Below, one piece after another: positions 9,552 through 64,000 of a stretch of 64,000 nucleotides of DNA. Location: positions 8,188 to 72,187 of the forward strand of contig CAZLHM010000005.1 in the NCBI GenBank assembly GCA_964559555.1, written 5' to 3'. The position numbers and the translations under genes are program-made. A model generated the notes under the pieces. The model did not search any database. It worked only from the letters and a program-made list of their open reading frames with translations, and had not been told where the DNA came from. Origin of the DNA: an uncultured Candidatus Bathyarchaeia archaeon. GTDB lineage: Archaea > Thermoproteota > Bathyarchaeia > 40CM-2-53-6. The stretch's first letter is position 1, and every line of letters starts with the position of its first letter.

Positions 9552-10223
9552 ATGGACTCGGATGATACGAAATCGAGCAACCCGAATAGTCGGAGGGCTG
9601 ATCAGACTCAAGGCCGCGAGCTCAAGGAAGAGGAGTTCTCGTCAGCTCTGGGCGAGGAGCTGATCGTCACAGAGGATATGCAGGCATCCGAGGGCGATGA
9701 AGAACCGTCTTCACCACTTTCCGAGAGCGATTTTGAGCCGTTGGCGCTCTACGGTTTCTCAGCGAAATACCCGAAGACCACGCGTCTTGAACTAAATCCG
9801 AAGTCCACGCGCGAGAAAGGCGATGTCGCCTTCCATCTTGAGGGAGCTCTGAAGATCTTCTTATCGTGGGGAAGCCTTGAGGAAGCGAGGAAACGATATG
9901 CGACCGCAGCCGCACAAGCATCTGGTAGCATCGAACGCTCGCTCAAGAGTACTCGCGCTCGTTTAGACGGGACGCCGGAGACCAGGAACATCAAGATACA
10001 AGAGCACGACGCCGTCTACACCCACGCAAAGATGTTTGTTGAACGAGGAGGTTTTCCGTTCGGCACACGCCGCGTGTTTCAGGAGGCGTACGCCTTGTAC
10101 GTGCATTGTGAGAACACGGGAAGGTACTATGTGGTCTATGCGTTCGCGAAACCCGAAGCCACCGAGGAAGTGGCAAAGATCTTCGATCCGATCATGTCCT
10201 CCCTGAAGTGCCATCTACCCTAG
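9552..10223 (+). CDS. Hypothetical protein with an acidic disordered N-terminus and a possible PsbP/Mog1-like alpha/beta domain
   Basis: 223-aa ORF filling the gap, containing YGFSAKYP...HCENTGRYYVVY...SLKCH. The fold is an inference. Confidence 0.6.
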   Translation: MDSDDTKSSNPNSRRADQTQGRELKEEEFSSALGEELIVTEDMQASEGDEEPSSPLSESDFEPLALYGFSAKYPKTTRLELNPKSTREKGDVAFHLEGALKIFLSWGSLEEARKRYATAAAQASGSIERSLKSTRARLDGTPETRNIKIQEHDAVYTHAKMFVERGGFPFGTRRVFQEAYALYVHCENTGRYYVVYAFAKPEATEEVAKIFDPIMSSLKCHLP

Positions 10224-11662
10224 GCTGAGCTCGCTTTCTTCTCAGCTTCTTGCACAATCTTCCAGAGACGCTTCTCTACATCCGCTGGCAAGGCGGGACG
10301 CGGGTGAGAAGCAAGTATCTTCTTCGCGACTTCTCTTGCGCGAACCTCCGCGGTTCTTGCGCCCTTCTCATGCCACTGGGACCAAGTCGTTCTATCTGAG
10401 ACCTGTGGTATCCACAATTCCTCTTTGAAGTGCTTCAACGAGTGCTTGGTTCCGAGGAAGCTTCCCCCCGGGCCTACGCGTTTGATGAGATCCAACGCTA
10501 TCTTCTCGTGGCTGACGCTGATTCCATCGAGAATCCTTTTCGTGATCTCAACGATCTCTTCGTCCAAGATGAACTGCTCGTAGCTCATCGTGTTGATGGA
10601 GTCGCACATGGCCATTCCTGAAACAATATTCAAGCCCGCCATCGCCGGCACGAGGCACGTCAACATCTTTTCATATCCACTCTGTGCGTCCGCTATCTTG
10701 GCGTCGGTGATGACGCCACCGCCTCTCGTCGGAAGACCGTAGTACCTGCCAAGCTGGGCTTGACACACCCTCAGGAGCGCGTACTCTGGCGTACCCATGG
10801 TGACGTTGGCTGTTCTCTGATCAATGTGCCTCGCCCAACATGCATAGATCACAGGCGCGGTGGGAGCCGCAACCTGTGAGACAACTAGGCCGCTGAGAAA
10901 TTCCGCGTTCGCCTGGGCAATTGTTCCCGCGAGGGTAACCGGGGAACTCGCACCCGCCATTGGCCCGGGGCTTATGCTGACCGGTATTCCGTTCCTCGCG
11001 CCTCCGACTATCTCTTGTGTTTGAAGTCGATCATGGGTCAGCGGGCTGATGACCGTGGCATCGAATGTGATGATCGGCTTCTTCCTGAGTGAGTCAGTGT
11101 CGCCTGCGACGACAGTGGCCATTGCCAAGGCATCTTGGATGCTATCGTATCCTCTTGCTTCGCTCAGTATGTGCTTCCTAGTGTTCGTAAAGGCGATCGC
11201 CCACTGGTGTCTGTCGAGAGTTGCCTGCGAGACGTCTCTCGGGGCCGCCGGGGGATTTGCGAGAAGATGGCAGTTCGGTATTGCGTCCGCCAGCCTAACA
11301 GCGTCAGCCAGATCTTGTGAAACAACCTCTCTACGTGCGCCAGTGGACAGATCATACACGTACGTCGCGTAGCCGCCGGTGGTGAAATAGGTCGCCCATG
11401 GCTCAAGCTTCACAGGATGGGTGCCGTCCCTTCCATAGAGAGTGAATTCCTTCGGCGCTTTCGTCAAGGCCTCGCGTACCAAGCTCTCCGGAAACTTCAC
11501 GATTGCCTTTCCTTGTTCTACGTGGGCTCCGGCTTCCCCAAGCATTTTGCACGTTTCAGGCTCGTCAATCTCTACCCCAACGTTGGCGAGTATCTCAAGT
11601 GAGGCTTGGTGAATCTGCCTGATCTCGTCCCTCGAGAGAATCTCGAAAGTTGTTCTCTTCAA
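10220..11662 (-). CDS. mttB: Trimethylamine methyltransferase (MttB) superfamily, non-pyrrolysine (copy 1)
   Basis: IHQASLEILANVG, ISPL, GASSPVTLAG, YGLPTRGGGVITDAK..DAQSGYEK, VGPGGSFLG. No in-frame TAG. Confidence 0.9.
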   Translation of the reverse strand: MKRTTFEILSRDEIRQIHQASLEILANVGVEIDEPETCKMLGEAGAHVEQGKAIVKFPESLVREALTKAPKEFTLYGRDGTHPVKLEPWATYFTTGGYATYVYDLSTGARREVVSQDLADAVRLADAIPNCHLLANPPAAPRDVSQATLDRHQWAIAFTNTRKHILSEARGYDSIQDALAMATVVAGDTDSLRKKPIITFDATVISPLTHDRLQTQEIVGGARNGIPVSISPGPMAGASSPVTLAGTIAQANAEFLSGLVVSQVAAPTAPVIYACWARHIDQRTANVTMGTPEYALLRVCQAQLGRYYGLPTRGGGVITDAKIADAQSGYEKMLTCLVPAMAGLNIVSGMAMCDSINTMSYEQFILDEEIVEITKRILDGISVSHEKIALDLIKRVGPGGSFLGTKHSLKHFKEELWIPQVSDRTTWSQWHEKGARTAEVRAREVAKKILASHPRPALPADVEKRLWKIVQEAEKKASSA

Positions 11663-11737
11663 GCCGGGCGCCTCAGCATAGCTTTCTGATCCACTACAAG
11701 AAGAGTTCGATCATAGCGAGGCGACTTGTTCTTGATT

Positions 11738-11750
11738 GGAAAGCTATATC
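11738..11750 (+). promoter_or_regulatory. Archaeal BRE/TATA element (GGAAAGCTATATC)
   Basis: Purine-rich BRE plus TATA ~50 bp upstream of the 11803 start. An identical 13-mer lies on the minus strand at 52052-52064. Confidence 0.55.
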
Positions 11751-11802
11751 AGAAGCACAGCGGTATCGGTTGCGAATTCGATAAAAAGGAAGCGAGGTCG
11801 AA

Positions 11803-12783
11803 TTGTATAGGCCAAAGGTCTACGTCAATCGATTGATTCCTGAGCAGGCATTGGAGAGACTCGCGGAACACTGTGACTATCGAATCTGGGAGGGCGAACT
11901 CGCAGTCCCACGCGATGTGCTTATTCGAGAGGTCCCAGTAGTAGACGCACTTCTCTCCCTTCTTACGGACAAAATTGATGCTGCTGTGATGGATGCTGCG
12001 CCTAAGCTGCGCGTGATCAGCAACATGGCAGTAGGATACGACAATGTCGACGTTCGTGAGGCGACGAAGCGCAAGATCATGGTGTGCAATACTCCTGGGG
12101 TTCTCACGGAGACAACTGCTGACTTCGCATTCACATTGCTGCTCGCCGCCGCCCGCCGCGTCGTTGAAGGCGAGCGAGTCGTGCGGGCCGGTAGGTGGAA
12201 GACGTGGGGTCCCCTGATTCTACTTGGCCAAGACATACATCACGCTACACTAGGGATAATCGGACTCGGTAGAATAGGAGCAGAGGTCGCGAAGCGAGCC
12301 AAAGGCTTCGATATGAAGGTCACCTACTATGATACTGTGAGGCGACCAGACATCGAGCAGAAGCTAGGCGTGGAGTTCAAGGATCTGAAGACGCTACTGG
12401 CCGAGTCGGATTTCGTGTCAGTTCACTGCCCGCTTCTTCCTGAGACGCATCACCTATTCGGAGCGGAGCAATTCAAGTTGATGAAGAAAACCGCGATACT
12501 GGTCAATAGTGCCCGCGGACCTATTGTCGATCCTAAGGCTCTCTATGAGGCGCTGCGAAATCGCCGGATTGCCTATGCGGCGTTAGATGTAACTGAACCT
12601 GAGCCGATACCAATGGATGACCCCTTGTTGACACTTGACAACATTGTCATTGCACCTCACATCGCAAGTGCATCAGTTGCGACTCGCACAAAGATGGCCA
12701 TGATGGCCGTGGACAACTTGCTGGCCGGCTTGAAGGGAGAGAGGCCGCCTTACATCGTCAACCCCGACGTACTCGTAGAGTAG
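11803..12783 (+). CDS. gyaR: Glyoxylate/hydroxypyruvate reductase (D-2-hydroxyacid dehydrogenase family)
   Basis: AVGYDNVD, NTPGVLTETTAD, GIIGLGRIG, NSARG, LDVTEPEP, PHIAS. Confidence 0.88.
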   Translation: MYRPKVYVNRLIPEQALERLAEHCDYRIWEGELAVPRDVLIREVPVVDALLSLLTDKIDAAVMDAAPKLRVISNMAVGYDNVDVREATKRKIMVCNTPGVLTETTADFAFTLLLAAARRVVEGERVVRAGRWKTWGPLILLGQDIHHATLGIIGLGRIGAEVAKRAKGFDMKVTYYDTVRRPDIEQKLGVEFKDLKTLLAESDFVSVHCPLLPETHHLFGAEQFKLMKKTAILVNSARGPIVDPKALYEALRNRRIAYAALDVTEPEPIPMDDPLLTLDNIVIAPHIASASVATRTKMAMMAVDNLLAGLKGERPPYIVNPDVLVE

Positions 12784-12897
12784 CTTCTGCGAGTCGCAAT
12801 GAGTGCCGGTAGCGTAAGCTCACTCGTATAGCTGCTTCCCCGGATCATGGGAATAATCGATTATCCGAACGGCGCCTTCGCCTGCACAACGACAGCC

Positions 12898-13797
12898 CTA
12901 TGACAGATTCGGCTTCCTAACCTGAGTCTTGGCGAGATCTTCGATTACGGTTATGATCCCGGAGTGGTCGTATTCTCCCCGTCCCGCGACTTTCATGGCA
13001 CCCATCATTTCGTGGATCAAACTCGTCACAGGTAGTGGTACTCCGTACTCGGATCCTGCATCCAGAGCAATTCCGAGATCCTTGTAGTGTAGTCTCGTTC
13101 TGAAGCCAGGGTTGAAATCTCGTTTCAATATGAGCGGCCCCTTTGCGTCAAGCACACGCATTGCCCATCCACCTGCAATCACCTTGAGAACAATCTCTGG
13201 GTCTACCCCTGCCTTTGCCCCGAGGACGAGAGCCTCGCCGGCCGACTCTAGGACACCAGCGACGAGGATCTGGTTGCACGCCTTCACGACCTGCCCAGAC
13301 CCTGTTTCGCCACAATACACTATGTTCTTGCCCATCGCCTGGAAGATTGGAAGACAATCTTCGAAGACCTGCTTCTCTCCGCCAGCCATGATCGTGAGTG
13401 TCCCTTCAATCGCCCCTTTCTCGCCTCCACTAACAGGAGCGTCGAGTGTTCGAACGTTCTTAGCCTTGGCAGCTTCCGCGAGTTTCTTTGTTGTGACGGG
13501 AGAGATTGTACTCATGTCAATGTACGTCGATCCGGGTTTGATCCCCTCGAAGATCCCGTCCGGGCCAAAAGCGGCTTTCTCAACATCTGGCGAGTCCGGT
13601 AGCATCGTGATGACCAAGTCGCTCGTGCCAGCAAGCTCCTTTGACGAGTGAGCGCGGTTGGCACCAGCGGCTTCGAGTTCTCGAACTGGCGCCTCATTCA
13701 GGTCGTAGACTACGAGTTCGTGTCCGGCCTTAACCAAGTTCTTTGACATCGGTTTGCCCATAATTCCGAGCCCAATGAAACCGACCCTTCGACCCAT
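12898..13797 (-). CDS. garR: 2-hydroxy-3-oxopropionate (tartronate semialdehyde) reductase-like, beta-hydroxyacid dehydrogenase family
   Basis: GFIGLGIMG, DAPVSGG, KACNQ, PGFR..LHYKDL. Confidence 0.85.
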   Translation of the reverse strand: MGRRVGFIGLGIMGKPMSKNLVKAGHELVVYDLNEAPVRELEAAGANRAHSSKELAGTSDLVITMLPDSPDVEKAAFGPDGIFEGIKPGSTYIDMSTISPVTTKKLAEAAKAKNVRTLDAPVSGGEKGAIEGTLTIMAGGEKQVFEDCLPIFQAMGKNIVYCGETGSGQVVKACNQILVAGVLESAGEALVLGAKAGVDPEIVLKVIAGGWAMRVLDAKGPLILKRDFNPGFRTRLHYKDLGIALDAGSEYGVPLPVTSLIHEMMGAMKVAGRGEYDHSGIITVIEDLAKTQVRKPNLS

Positions 13798-13887
13798 CTC
13801 GGTGACTCCCTGTTGGCATTGAAGCTGATTGCAAGTTCTTTAAGGCTAGTGGGCACATCTTGACCGTGCCGGTCTGAGGATTCCGAA

Positions 13888-14370
13888 ATGAGAATAGATC
13901 ACGTGTCACTCACGGTTCGAGATGTTGACAAATCCGTCGAGTTCTACAAGAAGGCCCTCGGGTTGAAGCTGCTGAGAGTATCCGTGCTCAGTCCTGCCCC
14001 GGGAACTGAGTACAAGAATGCCTACATGTACGGAGATCACTTCATGTTGGAGCTTGTGACCGCTGAAGGCTCGGCGCCGGAGCGGGAGATCCCGGCGACT
14101 TGGCAGAAGACGATGCGGGGATCGATCGGGATCGCACACCTAGGTTTGCGAGTCAGGGATCTCGATGGTGCGATGGCCAAGCTGAAGGCTGCTGGAGCAA
14201 CCTTGATCGGCGAACCATTCGAGGTCACAAAGAGGACGGCGAAAATCGAGTATGTCGCCGACAAGGCTGACCCAAAGATCAGCTACGCAAAGAAACCAGG
14301 CAAGAGAGCTTGGAGGATCGCGATCTTCTCAGATCCAGACGGAGTGATCCTAGAACTCGTTCAACGCTAA
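13888..14370 (+). CDS. VOC / glyoxalase family protein
   Basis: Metal ligands in IDHVSL, LELV, HLGL and DPDGVILELVQ. Confidence 0.85.
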   Translation: MRIDHVSLTVRDVDKSVEFYKKALGLKLLRVSVLSPAPGTEYKNAYMYGDHFMLELVTAEGSAPEREIPATWQKTMRGSIGIAHLGLRVRDLDGAMAKLKAAGATLIGEPFEVTKRTAKIEYVADKADPKISYAKKPGKRAWRIAIFSDPDGVILELVQR

Positions 14371-14392
14371 GAGATGTGAAAGAACGCGTATG

Positions 14393-14995
14393 CTAGAGTC
14401 TTGAACGACTGGTCTTAAGTGAGTCCGAAAGAAATGCTATCTGAGCTGCGTCCTCCGTCCAATCCATGTTTCTGAAAACCTCATAGAGGTCGCGTCCTAC
14501 CGCCACAACACCGTGACGGCTCAGAAGGACCGACAGAACTGATGGGTCTGAGAAACCTTGCGTAACGATCTCTGCAAGTTCGGGTGAACCAGCCGGTGCG
14601 TAACTCAAGAGTGGTACCCTCTTCAAGATGAATCGTGCTGGTCCCGTGACCATCGGAAGTTCCACGTCTGCAACTGCATACGATGTCGCGTAAGGTGGAT
14701 GCGCATGAAGGACCGCGCCAAGTTCAGGCCGAGCCTTATAGATGCCCAAGTGAAATCTGAATTCCATCGATGGTTTTCGGTTTCCCTCGACAGCGTTTCC
14801 GTCAAGATCTATCACGACGACGCTAGACTCGGAATCCATGGCACTGAAAACCATGCTCGTTCCAGTTGACTTGATGCAAACGTGACTTGTGCCCGGAACT
14901 CTCACACTCAAATTGGCACTGCTCCCGGGCGACCAGCCCCTCGCTGAAATCAACTGCATGATGCGACAAATCTCAGTTCTCAGTTCCTCATACAA
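14393..14995 (-). CDS. Class II aldolase/adducin family (FucA/AraD/OtnC-like)
   Basis: ANLSVR, PSMEFRFH, HAH and HGVV zinc motifs. Confidence 0.85.
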   Translation of the reverse strand: MYEELRTEICRIMQLISARGWSPGSSANLSVRVPGTSHVCIKSTGTSMVFSAMDSESSVVVIDLDGNAVEGNRKPSMEFRFHLGIYKARPELGAVLHAHPPYATSYAVADVELPMVTGPARFILKRVPLLSYAPAGSPELAEIVTQGFSDPSVLSVLLSRHGVVAVGRDLYEVFRNMDWTEDAAQIAFLSDSLKTSRSRL

Positions 14996-15086
14996 GCTGA
15001 CTCACGCTGTCCCCATTCGTCAATAGGAGCTATATTCACTCCCCCAAAGCTTAGACAAGCGGTCGAGGGACCTATAGGCGAGAGGA

Positions 15087-15917
15087 ATGAAGGTAAGCTG
15101 TCTGCCAGTCTCATTCTTTCGAGACATCATTGAGGGGAGAATGAGCCTACGCCAGTGGGCCATGGAAGGTGTCCGAGCAGGCCTAGACGGGATTGACCTA
15201 AGCATCCTATTCCTGAAGAGCCTTGAACCATATTATCTCGCAAGAGTACGGAAAGAGATCGAGGAATCAGGCATTCGTGTAGCGATGCTAACGACGTATC
15301 CAGATTTCACGCACCCAGACGCCGTCGAACGCGAGCGGCAACTGCAGCTACTTGAGGATAACATTCTTGCAGCTTCGAGGATTGGCGCCGACCTAGTTCG
15401 CGTCACAGCAGGACAGGCACATCCCGGCGTGGGTAAGCGTGAAGGAATCGAATGGGCAGTTCGCGGACTCACGAGAGCTGCGGAATTCGCAGTGGCGTAT
15501 CCGCTCAGACTCGTCTTCGAGAACCACGCCAAGCCTGGGGCATGGCAGTATACGGATTTCTCTCATCCTACGGAGATCTTCCTCTCGATCGTTGAAAGGA
15601 CAGCAAACACGACCCTCGGCGTCAACTGGGACACCGCCAACACACTCGCTTACGGAGAAGACCCGATTCCTGTGCTCAAGAGAGTGATCAATCGAGTCGT
15701 CAGCGTTCATGCTGCAGACACATCAACACGCGGCGCGTTGAAACCAGTCCTGCTAGGAACGGGCATTGTTCCGTTCAAGGAGATGTTCATGATCCTTAGA
15801 GACTCGGGATTCGACGGCTGGATATGCATGGAAGAAGCTAGCTTCACTGGGCTTGAAGCAGTCAAGACCGCCGCAGATTTTGTGAGACACACGTGGACCA
15901 AATCGCAGAGTCCTTGA
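15087..15917 (+). CDS. Sugar phosphate isomerase/epimerase (xylose-isomerase-like TIM barrel)
   Basis: FENH, WDTAN, VHAAD, LGTG, GFDGWICME. Confidence 0.85.
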   Translation: MKVSCLPVSFFRDIIEGRMSLRQWAMEGVRAGLDGIDLSILFLKSLEPYYLARVRKEIEESGIRVAMLTTYPDFTHPDAVERERQLQLLEDNILAASRIGADLVRVTAGQAHPGVGKREGIEWAVRGLTRAAEFAVAYPLRLVFENHAKPGAWQYTDFSHPTEIFLSIVERTANTTLGVNWDTANTLAYGEDPIPVLKRVINRVVSVHAADTSTRGALKPVLLGTGIVPFKEMFMILRDSGFDGWICMEEASFTGLEAVKTAADFVRHTWTKSQSP

Positions 15918-15962
15918 TTCGGAAAACCCGGATCACTTGCATCTTTTCCTTCAGACTCTCCC

Positions 15963-15976
15963 ACAAACCCTTATAG
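15963..15976 (+). promoter_or_regulatory. BRE/TATA promoter of the E1a-E1b-E2 operon
   Basis: ACAAACCCTTATAG ~50 bp upstream of TTG 16025, with an AGGAG SD between them. Confidence 0.5.
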
Positions 15977-16024
15977 TGCGCCAGATTCGTACCAGCCCGA
16001 AATCTCAGAATAGGAGCGAATCAC

Positions 16025-16996: not shown

Positions 16997-17009
16997 AGGG
17001 TCATGACGA

Positions 17010-18044: not shown

Positions 18045-18072
18045 TGACGAGATCTCGAAGGAGGTTGGGTCG

Positions 18073-19260: not shown

Positions 19261-19277
19261 ACCGCTGGAAAGCATCA

Positions 19278-21263: not shown

Positions 21264-21295
21264 GCATGTCAGTGGTTTCCTGAAGCCGACGAGAA

Positions 21296-53237: not shown

Positions 53238-53391
53238 CAGTCGCATCCCTCAAACTCCACTTCTTCGATCTGATGATGACTCTCCAGACCAGTGGATTGG
53301 CAAGTAAAGTCTATCGCATTTGAATGGCACTGCACGGCGAATTGCCTGGCGGATCTTGGAAAGTTATATGTAGCCGCCGTCCGCAAGGACC

Positions 53392-54357: not shown

Positions 54358-54402
54358 GGAGCAAGCGTAGAGCCGAGATCAGACACAGGAGCGCGTCCCG
54401 TC

Positions 54403-56207: not shown

Positions 56208-56281
56208 TCTAGGGCTCTCGCTGGCCTTGCGCGCGGGTTCAACAAATGGTAACCTCTTTTGCGAATCGTTCGGCTTCTAAT

Positions 56282-57571
56282 CTACTTGAGCGTCTCGAAT
56301 GCTTTCTTGGCGCATGAAAGGAACTTGTTCGCGTCTGCTTTGGTGTGCGCAGCTGAGAGATGACATCGCTTCAGGTGATGCGTGCTCAGTATAACACCTT
56401 GATCTCTCATCGATCGGCTGTACTTGCCGTACATCTCGGCATCATTAGAAAGAACGGAAAGGTAGTTCACGATATCGGCGTCTGTGAAGTATAGAGTGAA
56501 GATAGAGTGGAACCTCTTGACCTGCGCCCTCAGCCTGAAGTCCTGTACAAGTTGCGTCAGTCCATTGACTATCATATCCGCTACGTTGTCCATGCGCTCG
56601 TGGGCTTCCCCACTCTCTAGTTCGGAGATCGTAGCCAGGCTTGCAGCGACGGAGATCGGATGTGAATAGTAGGTCGCCGCCATGTGGACATCGCCCAGCG
56701 GCCTCAGACGGTTCATAATGTCGGACCGACCGGCGAGCCCGCCGATTGGATAACCGTTGGCCATCGCCTTCGCAAAGGCTGTGAGGTCAGGCTTTATCCC
56801 GAATAGCTTCTGCGCGCCACCTATGCTGTGTCTAAATGCTGTTATGACTTCGTCCAAGATGAAGACGATTCCATGGCGCGCTGTGAGTTCCCTTATTGTC
56901 TGAAGGAATCCTTCTTTGGGCATGACGACACCTATGTTGTGAAGAATAGGTTCGGTGATCACCGCAGCGAGCTCGTCTTTGTACCGTGAGATTGTCCGCT
57001 CAAGAGTATCGATGTCGTTCCAAGGAACGACGATCGTCTGGGCCATCGCTTCCGGCAGGCTTCCTGCGGACACCGGCCAAGGTGTTCCAACCTTGTCTGC
57101 GGGAGGCATCACACTAATGTCAACATAGTCATGCCAGCCATGGTATCCCCCCTCGAACTTGAGGATCTTCTTTCGTCCCGTGAACGCTCGTCCGAGCCTT
57201 ATCGCGTGAAATGTGGCGTCGGAGCCGGCGTTGCAGAACCGCACCTTCTCTGCGGATGGAACATGCCTCGTGATCTTCTCGGCGAGTTTGTACTCGAGTT
57301 CTGTTGTGCCAATCCCCCAGAGATCGCTCTCCAAGGCCGCCTTCCTGACGGCTTGCACAACTTTCGGATGGCAGTGACCAAGAATCAGCGGACCATACCC
57401 TAACAAGAAGTCAGTGTAGATATTCCCATCAACATCATAGATCTTTGATCCCTTGGCCTTCCTGAAGAAGATCGTATAGGGTTCCGTGAAGCGGAGTTCA
57501 TCGTGAACGCCGCCGATTGTCACAGACCTAGCCTTCTCGGAGAGCGCAGCAGACTTCCTACCTGAAACCAA
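56282..57571 (-). CDS. Class III aminotransferase, GSA-aminomutase-like (divergent)
   Basis: FEGGYHG, LDEVITAFR, FAKAMANG, AATYYSHP. Confidence 0.85.
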   Translation of the reverse strand: MVSGRKSAALSEKARSVTIGGVHDELRFTEPYTIFFRKAKGSKIYDVDGNIYTDFLLGYGPLILGHCHPKVVQAVRKAALESDLWGIGTTELEYKLAEKITRHVPSAEKVRFCNAGSDATFHAIRLGRAFTGRKKILKFEGGYHGWHDYVDISVMPPADKVGTPWPVSAGSLPEAMAQTIVVPWNDIDTLERTISRYKDELAAVITEPILHNIGVVMPKEGFLQTIRELTARHGIVFILDEVITAFRHSIGGAQKLFGIKPDLTAFAKAMANGYPIGGLAGRSDIMNRLRPLGDVHMAATYYSHPISVAASLATISELESGEAHERMDNVADMIVNGLTQLVQDFRLRAQVKRFHSIFTLYFTDADIVNYLSVLSNDAEMYGKYSRSMRDQGVILSTHHLKRCHLSAAHTKADANKFLSCAKKAFETLK

Positions 57572-57744
57572 TCAGCGAACACCGCATCCGCCACGTAGAA
57601 GCTCAGGCCAATATAGAAATTTCCATGCACCGTGTGCAGACGAGCTTCTTTCATTCGAGCAGACAGTCTCGGTCCAAGTACAGCAGCAAGCTCAACCTAG
57701 TCTGATCGGGCCTATCTGCAATCTAGAGAAACATCGCTGACCTA

Positions 57745-59025
57745 TCATATATTCGTCCGAGGAGCGACGGGAACTACCTCTCCACATTCCAGCACTCCGA
57801 CACGGGCTCGTTCTCCGTGCCGTTTCAGAGCGATTTCGATCGCCTCCTCTATCGTCGAGGCGTGCTCGAATCCCAGATCGACCTTATCTTCCTCCGTGAG
57901 CCCAGTCGAATAGCAGACAATGTTCGCATGTTCACGCATTTGCGCATGCATCAGCAACGCTCCTGCTACCGGTAGGTCTTCGATCTCGTCTCTGTCGACT
58001 GCCTCCAATAGCGAGGCGTAGCTCTCTGTCGCCCGGTTCCTGAAGCTCGGATGGGTCGGCGAGATGCGCTCAGGACAGGGCGTGATGAAGACGATAGTTC
58101 CACCTTTCCTGACACCGACGTGCGCAAAATCTAGCGCCTTCATGGCCTGCCAATAGTCAATGTCCGCTGGGTAGGTGGAGAAAACGATCACATCAGTGAG
58201 TTCAGGAACAACCCTACAGAACACCTGACGCGCGGTCTCGACTCCGTCACGAAACGCTTGTTCAGGATCGCCGGCAAATACGCGGACAACCCTGTCCTCG
58301 TTGTTGAGGACAGTATTGACTATGGCCTTCAGACCTGCCTTCCGGGCGATTGTGTTGATGTCTCGCCTCATGGGATTGTCGGCCGTTGCGACCAAGCTGC
58401 CAATCGGCTTGACTCTGCCTGCCGCGATGTGGAGTATGCCGACGGATTCTTCGCCGCACACGCCGGGGAGGATCATCTTACCGCCACCACCCCAACCTGC
58501 CGCGTTGTGAGGTACAATGTTACCCACACTCACGACCAAGTCCGCGTCGACAACAGCTCTGTTCACAAGAGCAGGAATGCCAAGCTCAGTCGTTCCTAGA
58601 TTCACCAGCCTCCTGTCGTCTCTGAAGTCATGATTGGAGACCCCAAACCGTTCAACGACTTCTGGCCCCAAGTGATCTAGGATCTCTGCATCCGTCATGG
58701 GCCTATGGGTTCCTAGGCCGATCATTATCTTGATATTATCCTCGTTAGCACGGCTTGAGCAGAGCTCCCTCAGAACTACTGGCAGAATCTCTTTCTGTGG
58801 AGTCGGTCTAGTCAGGTCATCGACGAGGACAATGATGCTGTCATTTTTCTTCGCTATCTTGTTCAGAGGAGGCGTTCCCGTAGGATCCCTTACCGCCTCT
58901 ACGACCGAGTTGCGCACATCTGGAACTGATGGCAGGCCCTTTCGCTTCACGTAAAAGGCGACGTTCCGATCGGGTATGTCGAACTTCACTTTCTGATGGT
59001 GCCCATAGGGGAGGGTGAAGTGCAT
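57745..59025 (-). CDS. larA: LarA-family nickel-pincer-nucleotide racemase/epimerase
   Basis: DDLTRPTP, GLGTH, VPH, GWGGGGKMILPG and a downstream His. The specific substrate is unknown. Confidence 0.88.
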   Translation of the reverse strand: MHFTLPYGHHQKVKFDIPDRNVAFYVKRKGLPSVPDVRNSVVEAVRDPTGTPPLNKIAKKNDSIIVLVDDLTRPTPQKEILPVVLRELCSSRANEDNIKIMIGLGTHRPMTDAEILDHLGPEVVERFGVSNHDFRDDRRLVNLGTTELGIPALVNRAVVDADLVVSVGNIVPHNAAGWGGGGKMILPGVCGEESVGILHIAAGRVKPIGSLVATADNPMRRDINTIARKAGLKAIVNTVLNNEDRVVRVFAGDPEQAFRDGVETARQVFCRVVPELTDVIVFSTYPADIDYWQAMKALDFAHVGVRKGGTIVFITPCPERISPTHPSFRNRATESYASLLEAVDRDEIEDLPVAGALLMHAQMREHANIVCYSTGLTEEDKVDLGFEHASTIEEAIEIALKRHGERARVGVLECGEVVPVAPRTNI

Positions 59026-59080
59026 TTCCAGTTCCTTCCTATAGCGCGCTTTCTTGATCGATCAGTGCCGGTGTGCTTCT

Positions 59081-60559
59081 TCACTGAATGCTCCGCGCTG
59101 AGGACTTTCTGACCATTTTCTCGCAAGCTTCTTTCAGGATCCTGTCCATTTGTTCTGTCGTCTCCTTCGGAAGCGACGGTACCTTGTGCTCGGCAAGGAC
59201 CTTCTTCACCTTCAGCTTTGCCTCCTCCCGAGCGCTCAATTGTCCCCTAGCTTTCCAGTCTGCTATCGCTTGACGATTGAAGAGTTTCGGATGTAGGATC
59301 TCGCCTTTCTCGAGATACCTACGTGTGTGCTTCTCGGCCATGAAGTGTCCTCCAGGCCCAAGTCTCCGAATGAGATCGACCGCCAACGTGTCATCATTGA
59401 CCTCGATCTGGATGAGAAGTCGCTGGATGTAATTGACGATCTCGTCGCAGATGACGCCCATCTCGAGGCTTCCCGAGGAGCCGTGCGCCATTGTTCCGCA
59501 GTTGTGGATTAGGTTGATTCCGGCGGCGGCGTTCAAATAGGCATTCATGAACGCTTCTGCACCAGCTTGCGCGTCTGGGCATTTTGAGTCAGTCCCCCCA
59601 CCCGATCCAAAGGTTGGAAGATGATAGTAGTCCGCCAGTTGCCCGACGATGAGCCAACCGAGTCCCCACTCTGGCGCGCCGTAGCACACACTCCCAGTAC
59701 GCATGTCGATGACCGATGTGTGAATACCGTAGAGCATTGGCGCGCCCGGAGAAACTAGCTGAGCAAGTACGACACCAGCCAAGCACTCCGCGTTACAGAC
59801 CGCATGCTCACCCGCCAACGTTATTGGAGCAGAGGCACCGGGCATCGGACCCGGCGCATATGCCACCGGGACGCGTGCCTTCGCAAACTCAATTACACCT
59901 TCGTTGATCTCTGGGATCACGAGTGGGGTTATCGGCTCGCTGAAGAGCGTCACTATGGGGCGACGAGCGAGATGCTCCAAGCCTCCGGTGACGGCTGCCG
60001 CTAACGAGAGTAGATACTTGGCCCCTTCTGCACCAGCAGCGGCATACACGATCGGCTTCTCTGTGTTCTGCAACATGAGCGAAGCCTCGTGAAGCCATGC
60101 GATCTCATGCGGCACGTTCGACGCACCGCCGAGCGACATGACGAAAGACATGTTCGGCAGTGCATCGCCGAGAATCGTTGTTCTTATGACATCCTGGCTC
60201 GTCGAAAGTCTGAATTCGCCACTGTCAATGTCCAACGTGTACGGTGTAGGTGTGCCTCCAAGACCGAAATAGATGCGCCCGCCCTCAAGTACGATATCGT
60301 TGGTTTCGGTTCTTCCACCCAAGACTATCTTGCGTGGTGCCTTACTCAAAGAATCCTTGACCAAGTGTTCCGGTATTCTGACCCTACTGGTTGCCGGTTC
60401 CACCTCGGCTCCCCCTGCCCTGAAGACCTCGATTATCCTCTGAGACTTCACCTCTACGCCAACTTGGTCGAGAATCTCAAGAGATGCTCCATCGATCGCT
60501 TGGATGTCAGAACGTGAAAGAGGACGGATTGCTCCTCCGCGGATTCCTCGCCTGACCAT
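59081..60559 (-). CDS. mttB: MttB superfamily methyltransferase, non-pyrrolysine (copy 3)
   Basis: GASAPITLAG, DMRTG, GAPE, YHLPTFGSGGGTDSK.PDAQAGAE, GPGGHF. Confidence 0.9.
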   Translation of the reverse strand: MVRRGIRGGAIRPLSRSDIQAIDGASLEILDQVGVEVKSQRIIEVFRAGGAEVEPATSRVRIPEHLVKDSLSKAPRKIVLGGRTETNDIVLEGGRIYFGLGGTPTPYTLDIDSGEFRLSTSQDVIRTTILGDALPNMSFVMSLGGASNVPHEIAWLHEASLMLQNTEKPIVYAAAGAEGAKYLLSLAAAVTGGLEHLARRPIVTLFSEPITPLVIPEINEGVIEFAKARVPVAYAPGPMPGASAPITLAGEHAVCNAECLAGVVLAQLVSPGAPMLYGIHTSVIDMRTGSVCYGAPEWGLGWLIVGQLADYYHLPTFGSGGGTDSKCPDAQAGAEAFMNAYLNAAAGINLIHNCGTMAHGSSGSLEMGVICDEIVNYIQRLLIQIEVNDDTLAVDLIRRLGPGGHFMAEKHTRRYLEKGEILHPKLFNRQAIADWKARGQLSAREEAKLKVKKVLAEHKVPSLPKETTEQMDRILKEACEKMVRKSSARSIQ

Positions 60560-60574
60560 GATTCCCAGCCTCGC

Positions 60575-61228
60575 CTATGCTATTCCTAGTACCTTCTTGG
60601 CCAGTTTCACCGCGTCGACCGCATTTGGGGCATATCCGTCCGCGCCAATGTCCTTTGCCCACTTCTCAGTAGCTGGCGCTCCCCCTACGAGCAACTTGTG
60701 TTGATCACGTATCTTACTCTTGACAAACTCGTCAATCACATCTCTCTGCACGGGAAGCGTCGTGCTCAGAAGCGCTGATGCCCCCACAATTCCAGCTCGA
60801 AGTTCGGTTGACCGAGCGACAAATGCCCCAACTTGAACGTCAGTTCCCAAGTCTATGACCTCAAAACCCGAGGCAAAGAGCATGGCTGCAACGATGTTCT
60901 TTCCTATGTCGTGAATGTCACCCGCCACGGTACCGAGCACAACCTTGCCGAGGGATCGCTGAATAGTGCGAGACTTTTCCATCGCGGGCCGTAGTACCTT
61001 GTCCAAGGCTTCCTTGGCCGCCGCCGCGGCACCCACCAAGTCTGTGAGAAACGCGTCTCCTCTTTCGAACCTCTCACCAACCTTCTTCAGTCCCTTCGCG
61101 ATGCCAGCCTCAACAGCGTCGGCGGGACCGATTCCCGCATCAATCGCGTGCTTCGCAAGCACGACTACCTTCTCGGGATCCATCTCTTCTACCGAACTGG
61201 CGATTTCATCGAGAATCTGTTTGGACAA
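60575..61228 (-). CDS. Corrinoid protein 2 (MttC-like)
   Basis: GDIHDIGKN, SALLSTT, VGGAP. TTG 61228 is preceded by an AGGAG SD. The longer ORF-track extension is antisense to the next gene. Confidence 0.9.
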   Translation of the reverse strand: MSKQILDEIASSVEEMDPEKVVVLAKHAIDAGIGPADAVEAGIAKGLKKVGERFERGDAFLTDLVGAAAAAKEALDKVLRPAMEKSRTIQRSLGKVVLGTVAGDIHDIGKNIVAAMLFASGFEVIDLGTDVQVGAFVARSTELRAGIVGASALLSTTLPVQRDVIDEFVKSKIRDQHKLLVGGAPATEKWAKDIGADGYAPNAVDAVKLAKKVLGIA

Positions 61229-61364
61229 CGAAACTCCTGACAATGGGAACAGGTCAATCACCATTTCTCTGTTTCGCATGCCCAGAACCAGGGAGCATTG
61301 ATTCGGGGACCTAAGGCTAATATTCGTACAGCCTGAACTCTTTGGGCGGAAGGAAGCAGGACGG

Positions 61365-62018
61365 ATGAGTTCAAAGACCGAAGTCATCGAGAAACTGAGG
61401 ACCGCTGTGCTTGAGTTCGATGTTGATCGAGTTCGAGCGGTCGCTGAAGAGGCTGTGCATCTCGACATCGATCCGGTCGAGGCCATCGAGGATGGACTCT
61501 CGAAAGGCGTGCGCACAATCGGGGACAGATTTGCAGCAGGCGAAGCGTTCCTCACTGAACTCGTCATGGCAGGCGAAGCCATGAAGGCGGGAGTCGAGGT
61601 GCTGAGGCCCATTATACTGCAACGGAAACTGCAGCGTAAGAGTACTGGAATTGTTGTGATCGGAACCGTTCGTGGCGACATTCACGACATAGGAAAGAAC
61701 ATCGTGGCTGTCATGTTGGAAGCGGCTGGTTTCGAAGTAGGCGACCTCGGCGTCGATGTGCCTCCGGACAGGTTCGTTGACAAGACCAAAGAGACGAACG
61801 CACAGATCGTTGGCATGTCAGCGTTGCTCACCGTGACCACACCCGAGCAGAAGATCGCTATGGAGGCGCTTGAGAAGGCGGGTCTGCGTAAGAACGTTAA
61901 AGTGGCCATCGGCGGAGCAGCAGTAACCCCAGAATGGGCGCGTGAGATAGGGGCCGAAGGCTATAGCGACAACGCTGTGGACGCGGTGGAGCTATTCAAG
62001 AAGCTCGTGGCTTCTTGA
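61365..62018 (+). CDS. Corrinoid protein 3
   Basis: GDIHDIGKN, MSALLT, IGGA. Confidence 0.92.
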   Translation: MSSKTEVIEKLRTAVLEFDVDRVRAVAEEAVHLDIDPVEAIEDGLSKGVRTIGDRFAAGEAFLTELVMAGEAMKAGVEVLRPIILQRKLQRKSTGIVVIGTVRGDIHDIGKNIVAVMLEAAGFEVGDLGVDVPPDRFVDKTKETNAQIVGMSALLTVTTPEQKIAMEALEKAGLRKNVKVAIGGAAVTPEWAREIGAEGYSDNAVDAVELFKKLVAS

Positions 62019-62065
62019 GTCCGCACGCGCGTCTTATCATCCGCAAGAGCCTGCTTACCTTGTCT

Positions 62066-63493
62066 TCAAAACTTCGCTTCGAACTCTCTCACAATTCGGG
62101 CCAGCGCATCTTTCGCATTTGCGGGCAATTCTCGTGGATGGTGTTCGCGCAGGATCTTCTTGGCCTTTTCCTTTGCGACCTTGACGATGTCCGGGCCTCC
62201 TCTGTTCATCCACCGACCAAAGGACGAGCGACATGAGATGTCAGGGATCCAGTGCTCGCTCTTGAACTGCTTCAGTGTGTGAGGTTCCTTGAGGAACTGC
62301 CCTCCGTGGCCAACCTTCTGAACGAGATCCACCACGAGCGCCTCGGAGTCAGCCTGCATTCCCCTAACCACTCTTTCCAAGTATCCGCAGATCTCGTTGT
62401 CAATCACTAGTTGCTCGTAGCTGACGATCAAACCTGTCGAGAACATCCCTGGGTTTAGCATCAAGTCAGCTCCTCCCAAGTAGATTGCGAGACCCGTCAT
62501 CGCCTTTTCCCACGCCGTCTGTTCATCGTGAACGTGTGCGTCGGTGTCAGGTCCTGCGGAGAGACATGGCAGACCATACTGCTTGGCTACCTGAGCGCTG
62601 GCGATCCTCATTATCGTGCCTTCGGGGGTGGCGATTACCGCGTTACCCTCGCGCATATCAAGAACGGTAGGAACATACCCATAGATTACGTGGGTCCCAC
62701 TTCTGACGAGCTGCGCGATCACGAGACCTGCGAGAGTCTCAATGTTCTGCAGAAGAAGCACGCCGGCAAGTGTGATTGGGGCAGTGATACCTGCGATCGG
62801 TTGAGAGATTATGTGAAGGGGGACGCCGGCAGCAGCCGTCTCCATCAGCGTCTCGATCGCATTCTTCTCCCATCGCAGAGGACTTGTGGGCGAAGCCATG
62901 GAAGTGATGGGAGGCTTGGAGGAGAGGTCACTTCGCTCCGAGGCGATCCTCGCCATCTCAAATACCGCTCGAGCGACTTCCGCGTCAGAGGGGGAGAAGT
63001 GACAATGCTTGGACGTGTTGTTCAGGATGACCTCGACAGCATGAGGTTCAGCGGATCTCGCTGACACGTCCTGCGGAATGGCCTCGGTCCCGACGATATG
63101 GATGTTGGGCAGGGCATCTGCGAGCTTCGCGAAATCTCCAACATCACGTTTCGTGGATCGCCGGCGTTGCCCTGTTTCTGAGTCCAACGTATAGGTTGCA
63201 TCGAAGCCGCTAATATTGTAGGTTCTCTTTCCTTCAAGCCTGATGTACGATGCCCCTGTCCTGTCATACAGATCGAGAGGACACTGAATGCTTGATGAGA
63301 TGGACTTCCTGACAAGGTCTTCAGGGATCTTCGCAATTCCTACCTTGTGATCGACTTGAGCACCGGCGGTAGCTAGCAGTTTACAGGCCTTCTCGTTCGC
63401 AATGGAAACCCCAACTTCGGAAAGAACATGCATCGTAGCCTTGTCGATCTCTCTGACTTCGTCTGGAGAAAGAACCGTCGCTCTCAGATGCAT
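62066..63493 (-). CDS. mttB: MttB superfamily methyltransferase, non-pyrrolysine (copy 4)
   Basis: TSPL, GITAPITLAG, DMREG, YGLPCLSAGPDTDAH..DEQTAWEK, VGHGGQFL. Confidence 0.9.
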   Translation of the reverse strand: MHLRATVLSPDEVREIDKATMHVLSEVGVSIANEKACKLLATAGAQVDHKVGIAKIPEDLVRKSISSSIQCPLDLYDRTGASYIRLEGKRTYNISGFDATYTLDSETGQRRRSTKRDVGDFAKLADALPNIHIVGTEAIPQDVSARSAEPHAVEVILNNTSKHCHFSPSDAEVARAVFEMARIASERSDLSSKPPITSMASPTSPLRWEKNAIETLMETAAAGVPLHIISQPIAGITAPITLAGVLLLQNIETLAGLVIAQLVRSGTHVIYGYVPTVLDMREGNAVIATPEGTIMRIASAQVAKQYGLPCLSAGPDTDAHVHDEQTAWEKAMTGLAIYLGGADLMLNPGMFSTGLIVSYEQLVIDNEICGYLERVVRGMQADSEALVVDLVQKVGHGGQFLKEPHTLKQFKSEHWIPDISCRSSFGRWMNRGGPDIVKVAKEKAKKILREHHPRELPANAKDALARIVREFEAKF

Positions 63494-63761
63494 CTGGGCA
63501 CCTTCAAATCCTTTCGTACAACGGCCTGCGTTGCATTGAAAAGCTTTCGACCCGGTTGTCGCGCGCTGGTCATTGATCGCTTCCTGTAGGTCTCTTTCAC
63601 GAAATCATACGATCCCAAGAGAGAAGCGGTGACCCGAAGCCAACCCTTCGAAAGCACACCACGCGAGCACAGGTGATCTCAGATTCTGCTTGCCGGACTG
63701 GTTATTGTTTCGGGTTCTCTACATTGGCTGGGACCTGACTCAAACCTAGGTAGCGTTTCGT

Positions 63762-63776
63762 CGAAAGTTCCTTATA
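63762..63776 (+). promoter_or_regulatory. BRE/TATA promoter of the permease
   Basis: CGAAAGTTCCTTATA, with a GGTGA SD before ATG 63817. Confidence 0.55.
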
Positions 63777-63816
63777 CCTACCGCGCGGGGGTTTCTTCAC
63801 GAAAAATGGTGAGAGA

Positions 63817-64000
63817 ATGACGAGCAAACCAAAGGTCTTCGTCAGAGAAGCAACAGGACTTGTTCGAGAGATCGGTGTCCGTGACCATGCGTTGACCGCT
63901 ATGAACGGCGTCGTTCCGATGATGGCAATCGCATTTACGCCATTCTGGATCTATCTTGCGATTCCCGGTGGCGACCCGACAGTGGGCATAGTGCTTGGCT
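63817..64000 (+). CDS. APC-superfamily amino acid/amine permease, N-terminal fragment running off the window
   Basis: Manual translation MTSKPKVFVREATGLVREIGVRD... FVRxATGLVRE is a typical archaeal APC N-terminus and is followed by a hydrophobic TM1. Confidence 0.8.
   Translation, partial: MTSKPKVFVREATGLVREIGVRDHALTAMNGVVPMMAIAFTPFWIYLAIPGGDPTVGIVLG

Follow-up and report, generated by a model that had tools for sequence, protein, structure and literature searches.

Three kinds of corrinoid methyltransferase unit in a probably mosaic catabolic region of a Bathyarchaeia genome

The present study deals with a 64,000-nt stretch of DNA from an uncultured Candidatus Bathyarchaeia archaeon, hereafter the window (G000:C5:8188-72187; the source genome G000 comprises 2.21 Mb in 127 contigs and is 93% complete), in which genes for corrinoid-dependent methyltransferases lie among genes of sugar, amino-sugar and cyclitol type. 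An earlier note had read positions 10220-64000 as one ~54-kb catabolic island encoding a single integrated route. Our analysis points elsewhere: this dense catabolic neighbourhood is probably neither a single pathway nor a mobile island but a mosaic whose modules were inherited separately. The patchwork holds three kinds of corrinoid methyltransferase unit, and it is via UroD/MtaA-type genes, not via MttB, that corrinoid-type methyl transfer shows a genomic tie to (amino)sugar/cyclitol-type genes. We propose a genus-conserved backbone, module A (10220-27902, 48042-50199, 53392-54357 and 56282-63493), which carries four MttB genes and two corrinoid-protein genes together with LarA-like, cupin, 2,4-diaminopentanoate-dehydrogenase-like (DAPDH), 2-hydroxyacid dehydrogenase, E1/E2, and HemL-like and other class III aminotransferase genes. 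Within this backbone three further modules sit in this lineage: an (amino)sugar/cyclitol-type block (module B, 28052-47972), two MtaA-type UroD genes flanking a PIG-L deacetylase gene (module C, 50218-53246), and a widely conserved pair of a corrinoid protein and a divergent UroD protein, UroD3 (module D, 54403-56207).

The modular reading comes in the first place from the comparison with two congeners (genomes compared are labelled G, contigs C, and metagenome contigs or fetched loci L). The 520-kb contig C1 of G008 and contigs C12, C54 and C4 of G004 are collinear with window positions 3564-27453, 48042-50199, 53392-54357 and 56282-63493 at 63-86% amino-acid identity, and both genomes are without a counterpart at those loci for 28052-47972, 50218-53246 and 54403-56207; segment 28052-29972, which starts the first of the absent blocks, has none in the G008/G004 locus. 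More specifically, 11803-15917 is collinear in G004:C12 and G008:C1, 19278-23938 is collinear in G008, and the DAPDH gene and the 2-hydroxyacid dehydrogenase gene 2HADH are present in G004:C54 and G008. Both congeners hold within ~11 kb the order MttB3, LarA, cupin, the aminotransferase AT3, (a hexulose-6-P-synthase-like gene), TIM3, 2HADH, DAPDH, the aminotransferase AT1 and MttB2, with a cupin orthologue (81-83%) between LarA and AT3, and the order MttB3-CoPb-CoPc-MttB4 is repeated in G004:C4 and G008:C1. Locus L024 is the same DNA as G004:C54 and was counted once, leaving two independent congeners; all these relatives are kin, and counts in them do not represent independent events. In short, the two congeners with all four MttB show no synteny of MttB and sugar genes, which speaks against the integrated route. 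The synteny check across Bathyarchaeia suggested in the earlier note gave the same answer: among the 105 genomes of the order, orthologues of the sugar-binding protein occur in family f10 only, and no MttB lies on the f10 contigs fetched.

The arrangement in G000 is a stable variant and no assembly artefact, as it recurs elsewhere. The order DAPDH-2HADH-UroD1-PIGL-UroD2-TIM3-CoPa-UroD3 is repeated in metagenome contigs L064, L065 and L097, and the order LLM-creatininase-TIM-DAPDH-2HADH-UroD1 in L095, in all cases at 65-81% identity; the aminotransferase AT2 and the 457-aa gene were not detected in L095. Furthermore, a Logan contig of run X1, possibly the source sample, bridges 26706-31649 and with it the cupin/NagA junction. 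The same organism was seen in a second sediment sample (run X2), most pieces being at least 99% identical and covering the MttB2 region and the sugar block (24000-43999); both sides of the cupin/NagA junction are covered there by short contigs only, with no bridge.

The region is not a mobile island in the usual sense. The left boundary of the ~54-kb island is arbitrary, since enzyme genes of like kind continue upstream, and the marks of mobility are missing: the GC level stays at 0.50-0.56 across the window, no tRNA was found in the region, and no integrase, transposase or other mobile-element family appeared among the 59 window open reading frames (ORFs) scanned with Pfam. Flanking repeats are short and imperfect, and no insertion boundary is marked by repeats, tRNA, Rfam match or GC shift.

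The concentration of methyltransferase units is real and beyond chance. A tblastn search of the window proteins against the genome returned nine MttB loci (ten matches including a fragment), seven corrinoid-protein genes and nine UroD loci; when adjacent methyltransferase genes were merged, the genome contained 18 units. The stretch counted, 53.8 kb or 2.43% of the genome, holds 4/9 MttB (binomial P = 4.0e-5) and 5/18 units (binomial P = 5.6e-5). These figures weigh against an alternative that we regard as unlikely, namely that the genes accumulated by chance in a paralogue-rich genome and that adjacency is uninformative beyond the pairs of first methyltransferase (MT1) and corrinoid protein. 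Paralogues are indeed plentiful genome-wide (15 class III aminotransferases, 14 luciferase-like monooxygenases (LLM), 11 MocA, nine UroD, nine Zn-dependent alcohol dehydrogenases (Zn-ADH) and six LarA by tblastn), mixed clusters of comparable families lie on contigs C1, C2, C4 and C8 of G000, gene order is rearranged even between congeners, where cupin and VOC genes have moved, and the neighbours of the corrinoid-protein/UroD3 pair are highly variable. Against chance stand not only the binomial probabilities but also gene pairs that recur in other families (UroD1 with MocA3, ABC importer, PIG-L and corrinoid protein; MttB3 with LarA and cupin) and a second MocA-UroD adjacency in G000, at G000:C2:54282-56432, where 22 bases separate a MocA-type gene from one of the UroD family. 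The absence of sugar/MttB synteny in relatives and the many paralogues elsewhere, both of which the earlier note had set against its own route, were found, whereas the chance accumulation that it joined to them is disfavoured (P ~5e-5). Another pair of corrinoid-protein and UroD genes was seen at G000:C4:77831-79617.

The tie between methyl transfer and sugar-type genes is carried by UroD1. Its closest solved relative is MtaA (4AY7, E 5.5e-34), with LHICGN and GC aligned, and UroD2 also aligns best to MtaA. Both proteins retain LHICG and GC, and H233, C235 and C314 of UroD1 are invariant in six orthologues; we take the H-x-C...C residues to be the metal ligands (Zn motif) of an MtaA-type second methyltransferase (MT2). 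Neither protein reaches the NCBIfam cut-offs of the MtaA and MtbA models, nor does UroD1 reach that of CmuA. Orthologues of UroD1 were gathered from genomes and from metagenome contigs, most of which are short; of 339 confirmed metagenomic relatives 80 loci were kept, 58 at least 57% identical. Neighbouring ORFs within 5 kb were clustered and annotated, and clades were formed at 85% identity in order to reduce repeated sampling. The clade count left out 10 of the 64 UroD1-orthologue loci, which hold partial genes, and L058, L059, L037 and G000 were labelled by hand. A sugar/amino-sugar-type neighbour occurs in 12 of the 23 clades, the MocA labels including weak tblastn matches of 24-28% identity. 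A second UroD-superfamily gene is found in 11/23, PIG-L adjoins the orthologue in five, and a corrinoid protein is present in six, the remaining 17 showing none within the available DNA; MttB lies within 5 kb in one clade, and four have no labelled neighbour owing to short contigs. In a control group of more distant UroD proteins (35-40% identity) none of 22 loci was sugar-labelled, four had a corrinoid gene and three an MttB, against 37/60 sugar-labelled UroD1-orthologue loci by the same method, the control labels being drawn from representatives of the orthologue set, so that divergent sugar genes are under-labelled there. The coupling of demethylation to sugar genes that the earlier note had assigned to MttB thus holds through UroD/MtaA-type genes and fails through MttB.

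Orthologues of the window's sugar-binding protein (62-71%) occur in 4/105 genomes of the order; the four belong to family f10, and within the own genus no match exceeds 31%. In G027:C25, where the importer gene order is kept, the genes for creatininase, binding protein, two permeases, two ATPases, MocA3, UroD1, HAD and SIS follow one another, and G081 shares with it the position of the creatininase gene immediately before that of the binding protein. G083:C10 holds MocA3, corrinoid protein, UroD1 and PIG-L-like genes, then HAD and SIS, and contigs C105 and C92 of G084 hold a UroD2-like gene, a binding protein, two permeases, two ATPases, MocA3, a corrinoid protein, UroD1 and a PIG-L-like gene, with a 49% homologue of UroD2 beside the binding protein in C105. 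The ABC importer, MocA3, (a corrinoid protein) and UroD1 therefore stand together in G027, G083, G084 and L091, with a PIG-L-like gene in the last three. MocA3 orthologues (61-65%) adjoin UroD1 orthologues in these four and in L093, and a 63% tblastn match to MocA3 lies beside UroD1 in L092. The commonest UroD1 clade (21 loci, including G004 and G009) shows PGK, FucI-like, UroD1, a further UroD protein (UroDp), binding protein, permeases and ATPase, and in further clades genes of NagB-like, PfkB, SIS and DUF4432 type appear. In several such clades a divergent UroD gene, UroDq, ends 4 bp before the start of UroD1. Against solved structures UroDp gave MtaA and UroD matches only, and UroDq one UroD at 0.0038. 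UroD1 orthologues of three congeners stand in a context other than that of the window: G004 and G009 follow the PGK/FucI-like arrangement of the commonest clade, and in G002 the gene, at which the contig breaks off, adjoins ABC ATPases and a binding protein of SBP_bac_5 type.

The third kind of unit is the CoPa-UroD3 pair. The two genes overlap and form a two-gene unit, and a corrinoid-protein gene lies directly upstream of UroD3 in the same direction in 16 of the 20 Bathyarchaeia loci fetched (L153-L172), other neighbours varying. UroD3 is represented by more than 120 protein clusters at 63-85% identity, whose names point, among others, to Bathyarchaeia, Methanomethylicia, Ranarchaeia and, in one record, [Eubacterium] cellulosolvens; it occurs in 22/301 Bathyarchaeia genomes and in 0/7 other congeners. 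In the alignment it is without the Cys ligands of MtaA and shows insertions after the first strands relative to UroD1 and UroD2. These features make UroD3, as we read its sequence, a candidate MT1. Searches against sequences of solved structures gave no match at E up to 0.01 and none to CdmB, and an AlphaFold2 model (8-row alignment, mean pLDDT 49.2) was too poor for fold comparison. As a side observation, proteins 66-67% identical to UroD3 and UroD1 carry the name [Eubacterium] cellulosolvens (P0085 and P0149, on contigs of 17 kb and 28 kb); either both genes crossed between domains, or that assembly contains archaeal contigs.

The UroD superfamily holds the MT1 proteins MtvB, OdmB, VdmB, MtoB and CdmB along with many clades of unknown substrate (PMC13222342), and bacterial-type MT1 genes were reported in 31/297 Bathyarchaeia metagenome-assembled genomes (MAGs) (PMC10989822). 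With UroD1 resembling MtoA/MtaA-type MT2, one may ask whether UroD1/2 and CoPa-UroD3 are Mto/Odm-type O-demethylases for methoxylated aromatics, the sugar neighbours being coincidental or serving the uptake of phenolic glycosides. We find this rather improbable, since UroD3 lacks any solved-structure match at the threshold given above, the UroDp and UroDq searches were without CdmB, the sugar/amino-sugar neighbours recur across clades as described, and no aromatic-ring catabolic genes were recognised in the Pfam scans of the window.

The four MttB proteins constitute a unit type of their own. All align to positions ~29-494 of the 500 of PF06253 (E 1e-87 to 1e-113) and score 433-470 bits with TIGR02369, the MttB equivalog model, under its curated cut-off of 525 bits. 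They are about equally far from the glycine-betaine enzyme MtgB (2QNE/9YCE, E 1e-62 to 1e-80) and the pyrrolysine (Pyl) enzyme MttB (7XCL, E 1e-67 to 1e-77). Their ORFs have no in-frame stop, a sense codon replacing UAG, and PylS and PylB models stayed under cut-off in the 93%-complete genome. The Rfam element PYLIS_3 gave matches at 10612-10711(-) in MttB1 and 24346-24445(-) in MttB2 (41 and 42.5 versus a gathering score of 38); the matches lie in coding sequence at the Pyl-equivalent region, the UAG position of MttB1 reads AUC in the PYLIS_3 alignment, and they probably represent coding-sequence homology rather than a working element. Pairwise identity among the four is 32-36%, implying different putative substrates. 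All three corrinoid proteins of the window contain B12-binding and B12-binding_2 domains with the DxHxxG motif as DIHDIG. The ORF listed for CoPb (60575-61681) is over-extended and overlaps CoPc on the other strand by 317 bases: the ~150 residues at its start are of low complexity and match nothing, the B12 domains begin at residue 154-157, and start-codon candidates at 61279-61228 would give a protein of ~220-235 aa.

Between 0 and 12 MttB matches were counted per genome in ten genomes of the genus, and within the genus only G004 and G008 hold orthologues of all four (69-80% identity). Those of MttB1 (76-77%) were found in these two alone, and those of MttB2 in the two congeners (69%), in G052 (56%) and in G082 (54%), where the gene adjoins a corrinoid gene. 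AT3 and LarA are linked to MttB3 and cupin in G004, G008, G052 and G058: in G052, of a second genus, the MttB3 orthologue keeps cupin and LarA-family neighbours (67-73%), and in G058 it stands beside only weak LarA- and AT3-like genes (31-38%). An E1/E2 set similar to that of the window (45-57% identity) adjoins MttB and corrinoid genes in G030:C7, of another family; there, at 161073-175421 (L150 5073-19421), three MttB-like genes, VOC, UroD, corrinoid protein and E1 alpha/E1 beta/E2 lie in 15 kb, an echo of the MttB and 2-oxoacid dehydrogenase proximity in the window. As separate observations, the MttB4 orthologue of G008 (G008:C1:266169-267552) is split into two overlapping frames, and several MttB homologues in other families of the order contain one in-frame TAG, some also a TAA (G025:C2:25368-26774, G030:C12:96165-97574, G076:C12:34821-36281); such genes may be pseudogenes, sequencing errors or Pyl-type genes.

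The single O2-independent route, in which methylated (amino)sugars, cyclitols or betaines would be imported and demethylated by MttB and corrinoid proteins before deacylation, deamination, oxidation, epimerisation and decarboxylation, appears very improbable to us, for although every required enzyme class lies within 54 kb, the methyltransferase units are non-randomly concentrated, partial order is repeated in L064, L065, L095 and L097 and E1/E2 stands beside MttB in G030:C7, MttB and sugar genes are unsyntenic in the two congeners, MttB is near UroD1 in a single clade, the f10 contigs with the ABC/MocA set show no MttB, the MttB proteins diverge as stated, and frequent strand switches rule out a single operon.

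Features of the window are collected in Table 1. Open reading frames of at least 100 aa were listed; 59 non-overlapping ones and one short ORF were scanned with Pfam and 30 with NCBIfam. All family counts of the earlier note were reproduced: four full-length uninterrupted PF06253 ORFs (the Pyl-free MttB), three each of corrinoid proteins, UroD-family proteins, Gfo/Idh/MocA, TIM barrels and class III aminotransferases, four amide hydrolases, two LLM, three VOC proteins, a CUT1-type sugar importer, an EamA transporter and an APC permease. Its archaeal assignment agrees with the two named relatives found, both Bathyarchaeota/Bathyarchaeia MAGs, and its statement that housekeeping genes are missing is correct for informational genes, though the IMPase, PdxA-type and HemL-like genes could be biosynthetic.

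Table 1. Features of the window (single numbers locate the gene; scores in bits or E-values, with model cut-offs where given)
Feature	Position	Strand	Basis
MttB1, non-Pyl MttB-superfamily MT1	10220-11662	-	PF06253 3.2e-113; TIGR02369 470 bits
2-hydroxyacid dehydrogenase	11803	+	Pfam
Tartronate-semialdehyde-reductase-type dehydrogenase	12898	-	TIGR01505 365.7 (cut-off 340.75)
VOC protein	13888	+	Pfam
Class II aldolase	14393	-	Pfam
TIM barrel	15087; segment ends 15917	+	Pfam AP_endonuc_2
2-oxoacid dehydrogenase E1 alpha, E1 beta, E2 (lipoyl domain)	16025-19260	+	E1_dh; Transket_pyr/Transketolase_C; 2-oxoacid_dh+Biotin_lipoyl
Zn-ADH	19278	-	Pfam
IMPase	20499	+	Pfam
PdxA-type dehydrogenase	21296	-	TIGR00557 395.6 (cut-off 290)
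LLM	22467	+	Pfam Bac_luciferase
VOC protein	23507; segment ends 23938	+	Pfam
MttB2, non-Pyl MttB-superfamily MT1	23963-25381	-	PF06253 4.6e-94
Class III aminotransferase AT1	25579	+	Pfam Aminotran_3
VOC protein	27049	+	Pfam
Cupin	27519; segment ends 27902	-	Pfam
NagA-type GlcNAc-6-P deacetylase (amide hydrolase)	28052	+	TIGR00221 356 (cut-off 225.65)
Hexulose-6-P-synthase-like OMPdecase-family protein	segment ends 29972	+	TIGR03128 157 (under 200)
ABC binding protein (CUT1-type importer)	30167	+	no Pfam match; 44%-identical L091 relative matches SBP_bac_1
Two permeases	31712, 32589	+	BPD_transp_1
Two MalK-like ATPases	33639, 34748; importer ends 35830	-	ABC_tran+OB_MalK+TOBE_2
EamA transporter	36074	+	Pfam
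GFO/IDH/MocA oxidoreductase	37024	-	Pfam
GFO/IDH/MocA oxidoreductase	38044	-	Pfam
GFO/IDH/MocA oxidoreductase MocA3	39339; segment ends 40379	+	Pfam
Amidohydro_3 (amide hydrolase)	40679	-	Pfam
LLM	42401	-	Pfam Bac_luciferase
457-aa protein	43366	+	weak GHL10-like lead only; otherwise unnamed protein clusters
Creatininase-family hydrolase (amide hydrolase)	44813	-	IolN model 83 (under 245)
TIM epimerase-like protein	45702	-	AP_endonuc_2; IolO model 47.7 (under 300)
Class III aminotransferase AT2	46593; segment ends 47972	+	Pfam Aminotran_3
DAPDH-like protein	48042	-	DAP_DH_C; NF040740 314 (under 400)
2-hydroxyacid dehydrogenase 2HADH (backbone gene)	49228; segment ends 50199	+	
UroD1, MtaA-type (MT2-like) methyltransferase	50218-51237	+	URO-D 2.6e-83
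PIG-L family de-N-acetylase (amide hydrolase)	51317-52012	-	PF02585 2.6e-33; BshB1 model 164.7 (under 182.5)
UroD2, second MtaA-type methyltransferase	52182-53246	-	URO-D 1.8e-74; H-x-C...C kept
TIM3, weak xylose-isomerase-like TIM barrel, 321 aa	53392-54357	+	AP_endonuc_2 71 bits; no NCBIfam match
CoPa corrinoid protein	54403-55044	+	B12-binding + B12-binding_2
UroD3, divergent UroD-superfamily, candidate MT1	55029-56207	+	URO-D match on C-terminal half only
HemL-like class III aminotransferase/aminomutase AT3	56282	-	Aminotran_3; NF000818 411 (cut-off 398)
LarA-family racemase/epimerase	57745; segment ends 59025	-	Lar_N; malate-racemase model 308 (under 500)
MttB3	59081-60559	-	Pfam, NCBIfam
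CoPb corrinoid protein	~60575-61264	-	Pfam, NCBIfam
CoPc corrinoid protein	61365-62018	+	Pfam, NCBIfam
MttB4	62066-63493	-	Pfam, NCBIfam
APC-family permease, 5' end	63817-64000	+	first 61 codons within window

Module B looks like a block for (amino)sugar/cyclitol uptake and oxidation, judging from its families. Its three MocA proteins score 141-192 bits with the IolG model TIGR04380, under the cut-off of 355. The APC gene at the right edge is complete on the contig (G000:C5:72004-73608, 534 aa; AA_permease_2 38.4 bits versus a cut-off of 27). Upstream of MttB1, window positions 3564-8981 hold genes for a DUF4432 protein, a cyclophilin-like protein, a 670-aa protein with a partial transaldolase match, myo-inositol-1-phosphate synthase and a DUF498 protein, and contigs G004:C12 and G008:C1 keep these five genes in collinear order; with the IMPase added, the set suggests inositol synthesis beside inositol-dehydrogenase-like genes. 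In G008:C1 a further ~13 kb not in the window (~296500-309800) lies between the 2-hydroxyacid dehydrogenase and MttB1 orthologues, so that the backbone itself is also variable. A tetronate (threonate/erythronate) route made up of the genes at 12898, 14393, 15087 and 21296 was considered and rejected (ThreonDh 191 versus 350, OxoTetrPhDc 92 versus 250); a DUF1537 kinase did not appear in the Pfam scans of window ORFs.

We infer all substrates, acceptors and fluxes from the families, motifs, gene order and distribution described here. In the mechanism that we propose, an MT1 (MttB, or a divergent UroD such as UroD3 or UroDp/q) would methylate the Co(I) corrinoid protein, and an MT2 (MtaA-type UroD1/2, or MtrH encoded elsewhere) would pass the methyl group on, probably to tetrahydromethanopterin (H4MPT). 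The methyl group would then enter acetyl-CoA synthesis by carbon monoxide dehydrogenase/acetyl-CoA synthase (CODH/ACS) or be oxidised, and an activase of RACo/RamA type encoded on another contig would re-reduce the cofactor. G000 encodes MtrH and CdhC, and a RACo_C_ter gene (303 bits) lies outside the window on contig C38; McrA was not found in G000 at 93% completeness. Module A most likely represents a number of mutually independent systems that demethylate methylated amines or betaines, and enzymes encoded nearby would take the demethylated backbones into amino-, hydroxy- and oxo-acid metabolism.

For the UroD genes we offer a more tentative proposal, which we consider possible rather than probable: the UroD-superfamily corrinoid methyltransferase system of this Bathyarchaeia order may be dedicated, independently of oxygen, to methyl groups on sugars, amino sugars or cyclitols. 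In it, MtaA-type UroD1/UroD2 would work with a corrinoid protein and with one of the divergent UroD proteins (UroD3, UroDp or UroDq) as partner. After uptake through the neighbouring CUT1 ABC transporter, the substrate would lose its methyl group without oxygen and pass to the MocA, PIG-L, SIS, NagB-like and isomerase enzymes encoded nearby, the methyl group feeding the H4MPT and CODH/ACS route. Candidates would be pinitol and other O-methyl-inositols, the O-methyl forms of fucose, xylose, glucuronate or galactose in plant or algal polymers, N-methyl amino sugars and methylthio-sugars.

Several points weigh against the mosaic. Collinearity with the two congeners would follow from common ancestry and is a poor guide to function. 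G008 is 69% complete and G004 90%, so that the missing blocks could be on unassembled DNA, though not at the syntenic site. An insertion in G000 versus a deletion in G004/G008 is unmarked by flanking repeats, tRNA or GC shift. The concentration of methyltransferases (P ~5e-5) could reflect co-regulation or a shared cofactor economy, and hence a degree of functional coupling; the genes for MocA3, UroD1, PIG-L and the ABC importer, which adjoin one another in f10, are here scattered across 20 kb, and modules B and C at least may be one functional set. No RNA run with coverage of 48042-57571 was found among the runs searched.

The three kinds of unit resemble known systems to different degrees. 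Eubacterium limosum has MttB-superfamily methyltransferases for carnitine, proline betaine and gamma-butyrobetaine. Like the non-Pyl quaternary-amine systems (MtgB with MtgC/MtgA of Desulfitobacterium hafniense, PDB 2QNE/9YCE), the MttB proteins of the window have the full-length MTTB fold without Pyl, and corrinoid proteins with DxHxxG adjoin MttB3 and MttB4 and score best with the MtgC/MtbC models. Unlike those systems, there is no adjacent pterin-type MT2 and no corrinoid gene beside MttB1 and MttB2, the host is a non-methanogenic archaeon, and the proteins are about equally distant from MtgB and Pyl-MttB and under the only NCBIfam cut-off. The three-component UroD systems, MtoABCD of Methermicoccus shengliensis, Odm/Vdm of Acetobacterium dehalogenans, Mtv of Moorella and CdmBCA (PDB 9RUI), share with the window a divergent UroD-fold candidate MT1, a corrinoid protein and an MtaA-type UroD with H-x-C...C; in G000 the activase is encoded elsewhere in the genome. 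They differ in belonging to aromatic catabolism and not to a sugar/amino-sugar context; moreover, UroD3, UroDp and UroDq have no CdmB match, and most UroD1 clades (17/23) are without a corrinoid gene in the available DNA. The MtgB cluster of Ca. Baizosediminiarchaeum ligniniphilus (Yu et al. 2023, PMC10989822) is likewise from Bathyarchaeia and combines corrinoid protein, MT2 and MT1 with no activase in the cluster. Its MT1 is of ~300 aa without recognised homology, and in the window TIM3, of similar length and with a weak TIM match, lies directly upstream of CoPa; unlike that cluster (PMC10989822), the TIM3 orthologues of G004 and G008 have no adjacent corrinoid gene.

The sugar-type genes can also be set beside described routes. 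Inositol catabolism has parallels in the window, which holds an ABC importer, dehydrogenases of the MocA/IolG family and, similar to IolN and IolO respectively, a creatininase-family hydrolase and a TIM epimerase. Inositol catabolism comprises IolG and the Thermotoga-type IolM/IolN/IolO steps, and rhizopine catabolism the moc genes. The scores are, however, all far below cut-off, and no IolB/C/D/E-type families and no MocDEF-type oxygenase appeared in the Pfam scans. The Thermococcus chitobiose/GlcNAc route has the PIG-L deacetylase Dac and a SIS-type GlcN-6-P deaminase. PIG-L, a NagA-type deacetylase and an ABC importer occur here too, with SIS, NagB-like, PfkB and HAD genes beside UroD1 orthologues elsewhere; in contrast to that route, no chitinase or glucosaminidase was recognised and no SIS/NagB is present in the window, and the methyltransferase genes have no counterpart there.

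As to what is already in print, mttB genes in Bathyarchaeia (PMC10321748, PMC11264602), methylotrophic acetogenesis in Bathyarchaeia (PMC7886697, PMC11264602) and bacterial-type as well as Bathyarchaeia-specific O-demethylases (PMC10989822, PMC9534799) have been reported, MT2 transfer to tetrahydrofolate or H4MPT has been described (PMC10989822), and a couple of corrinoid protein and MtrH in Bathy-6 has been discussed (PMC7886697). As mttB has thus been published, the MttB part of our analysis extends known work. Our literature search found, by title and start of abstract, no paper on corrinoid/UroD-type demethylation of methylated sugars.

What is new is that a 54-kb stretch of one genome gathers corrinoid methyltransferase units of three kinds, and that MtaA-type UroD genes recur beside sugar/amino-sugar genes in several lineages, which we regard as a lead. 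If these systems do demethylate methylated sugars or cyclitols, they would remove plentiful methyl ethers of plant and algal origin under anoxic conditions, a sink so far unrecognised, would supply sediments with C1 units from a new source, and would constitute an anaerobic counterpart of oxygenase-dependent sugar demethylation.

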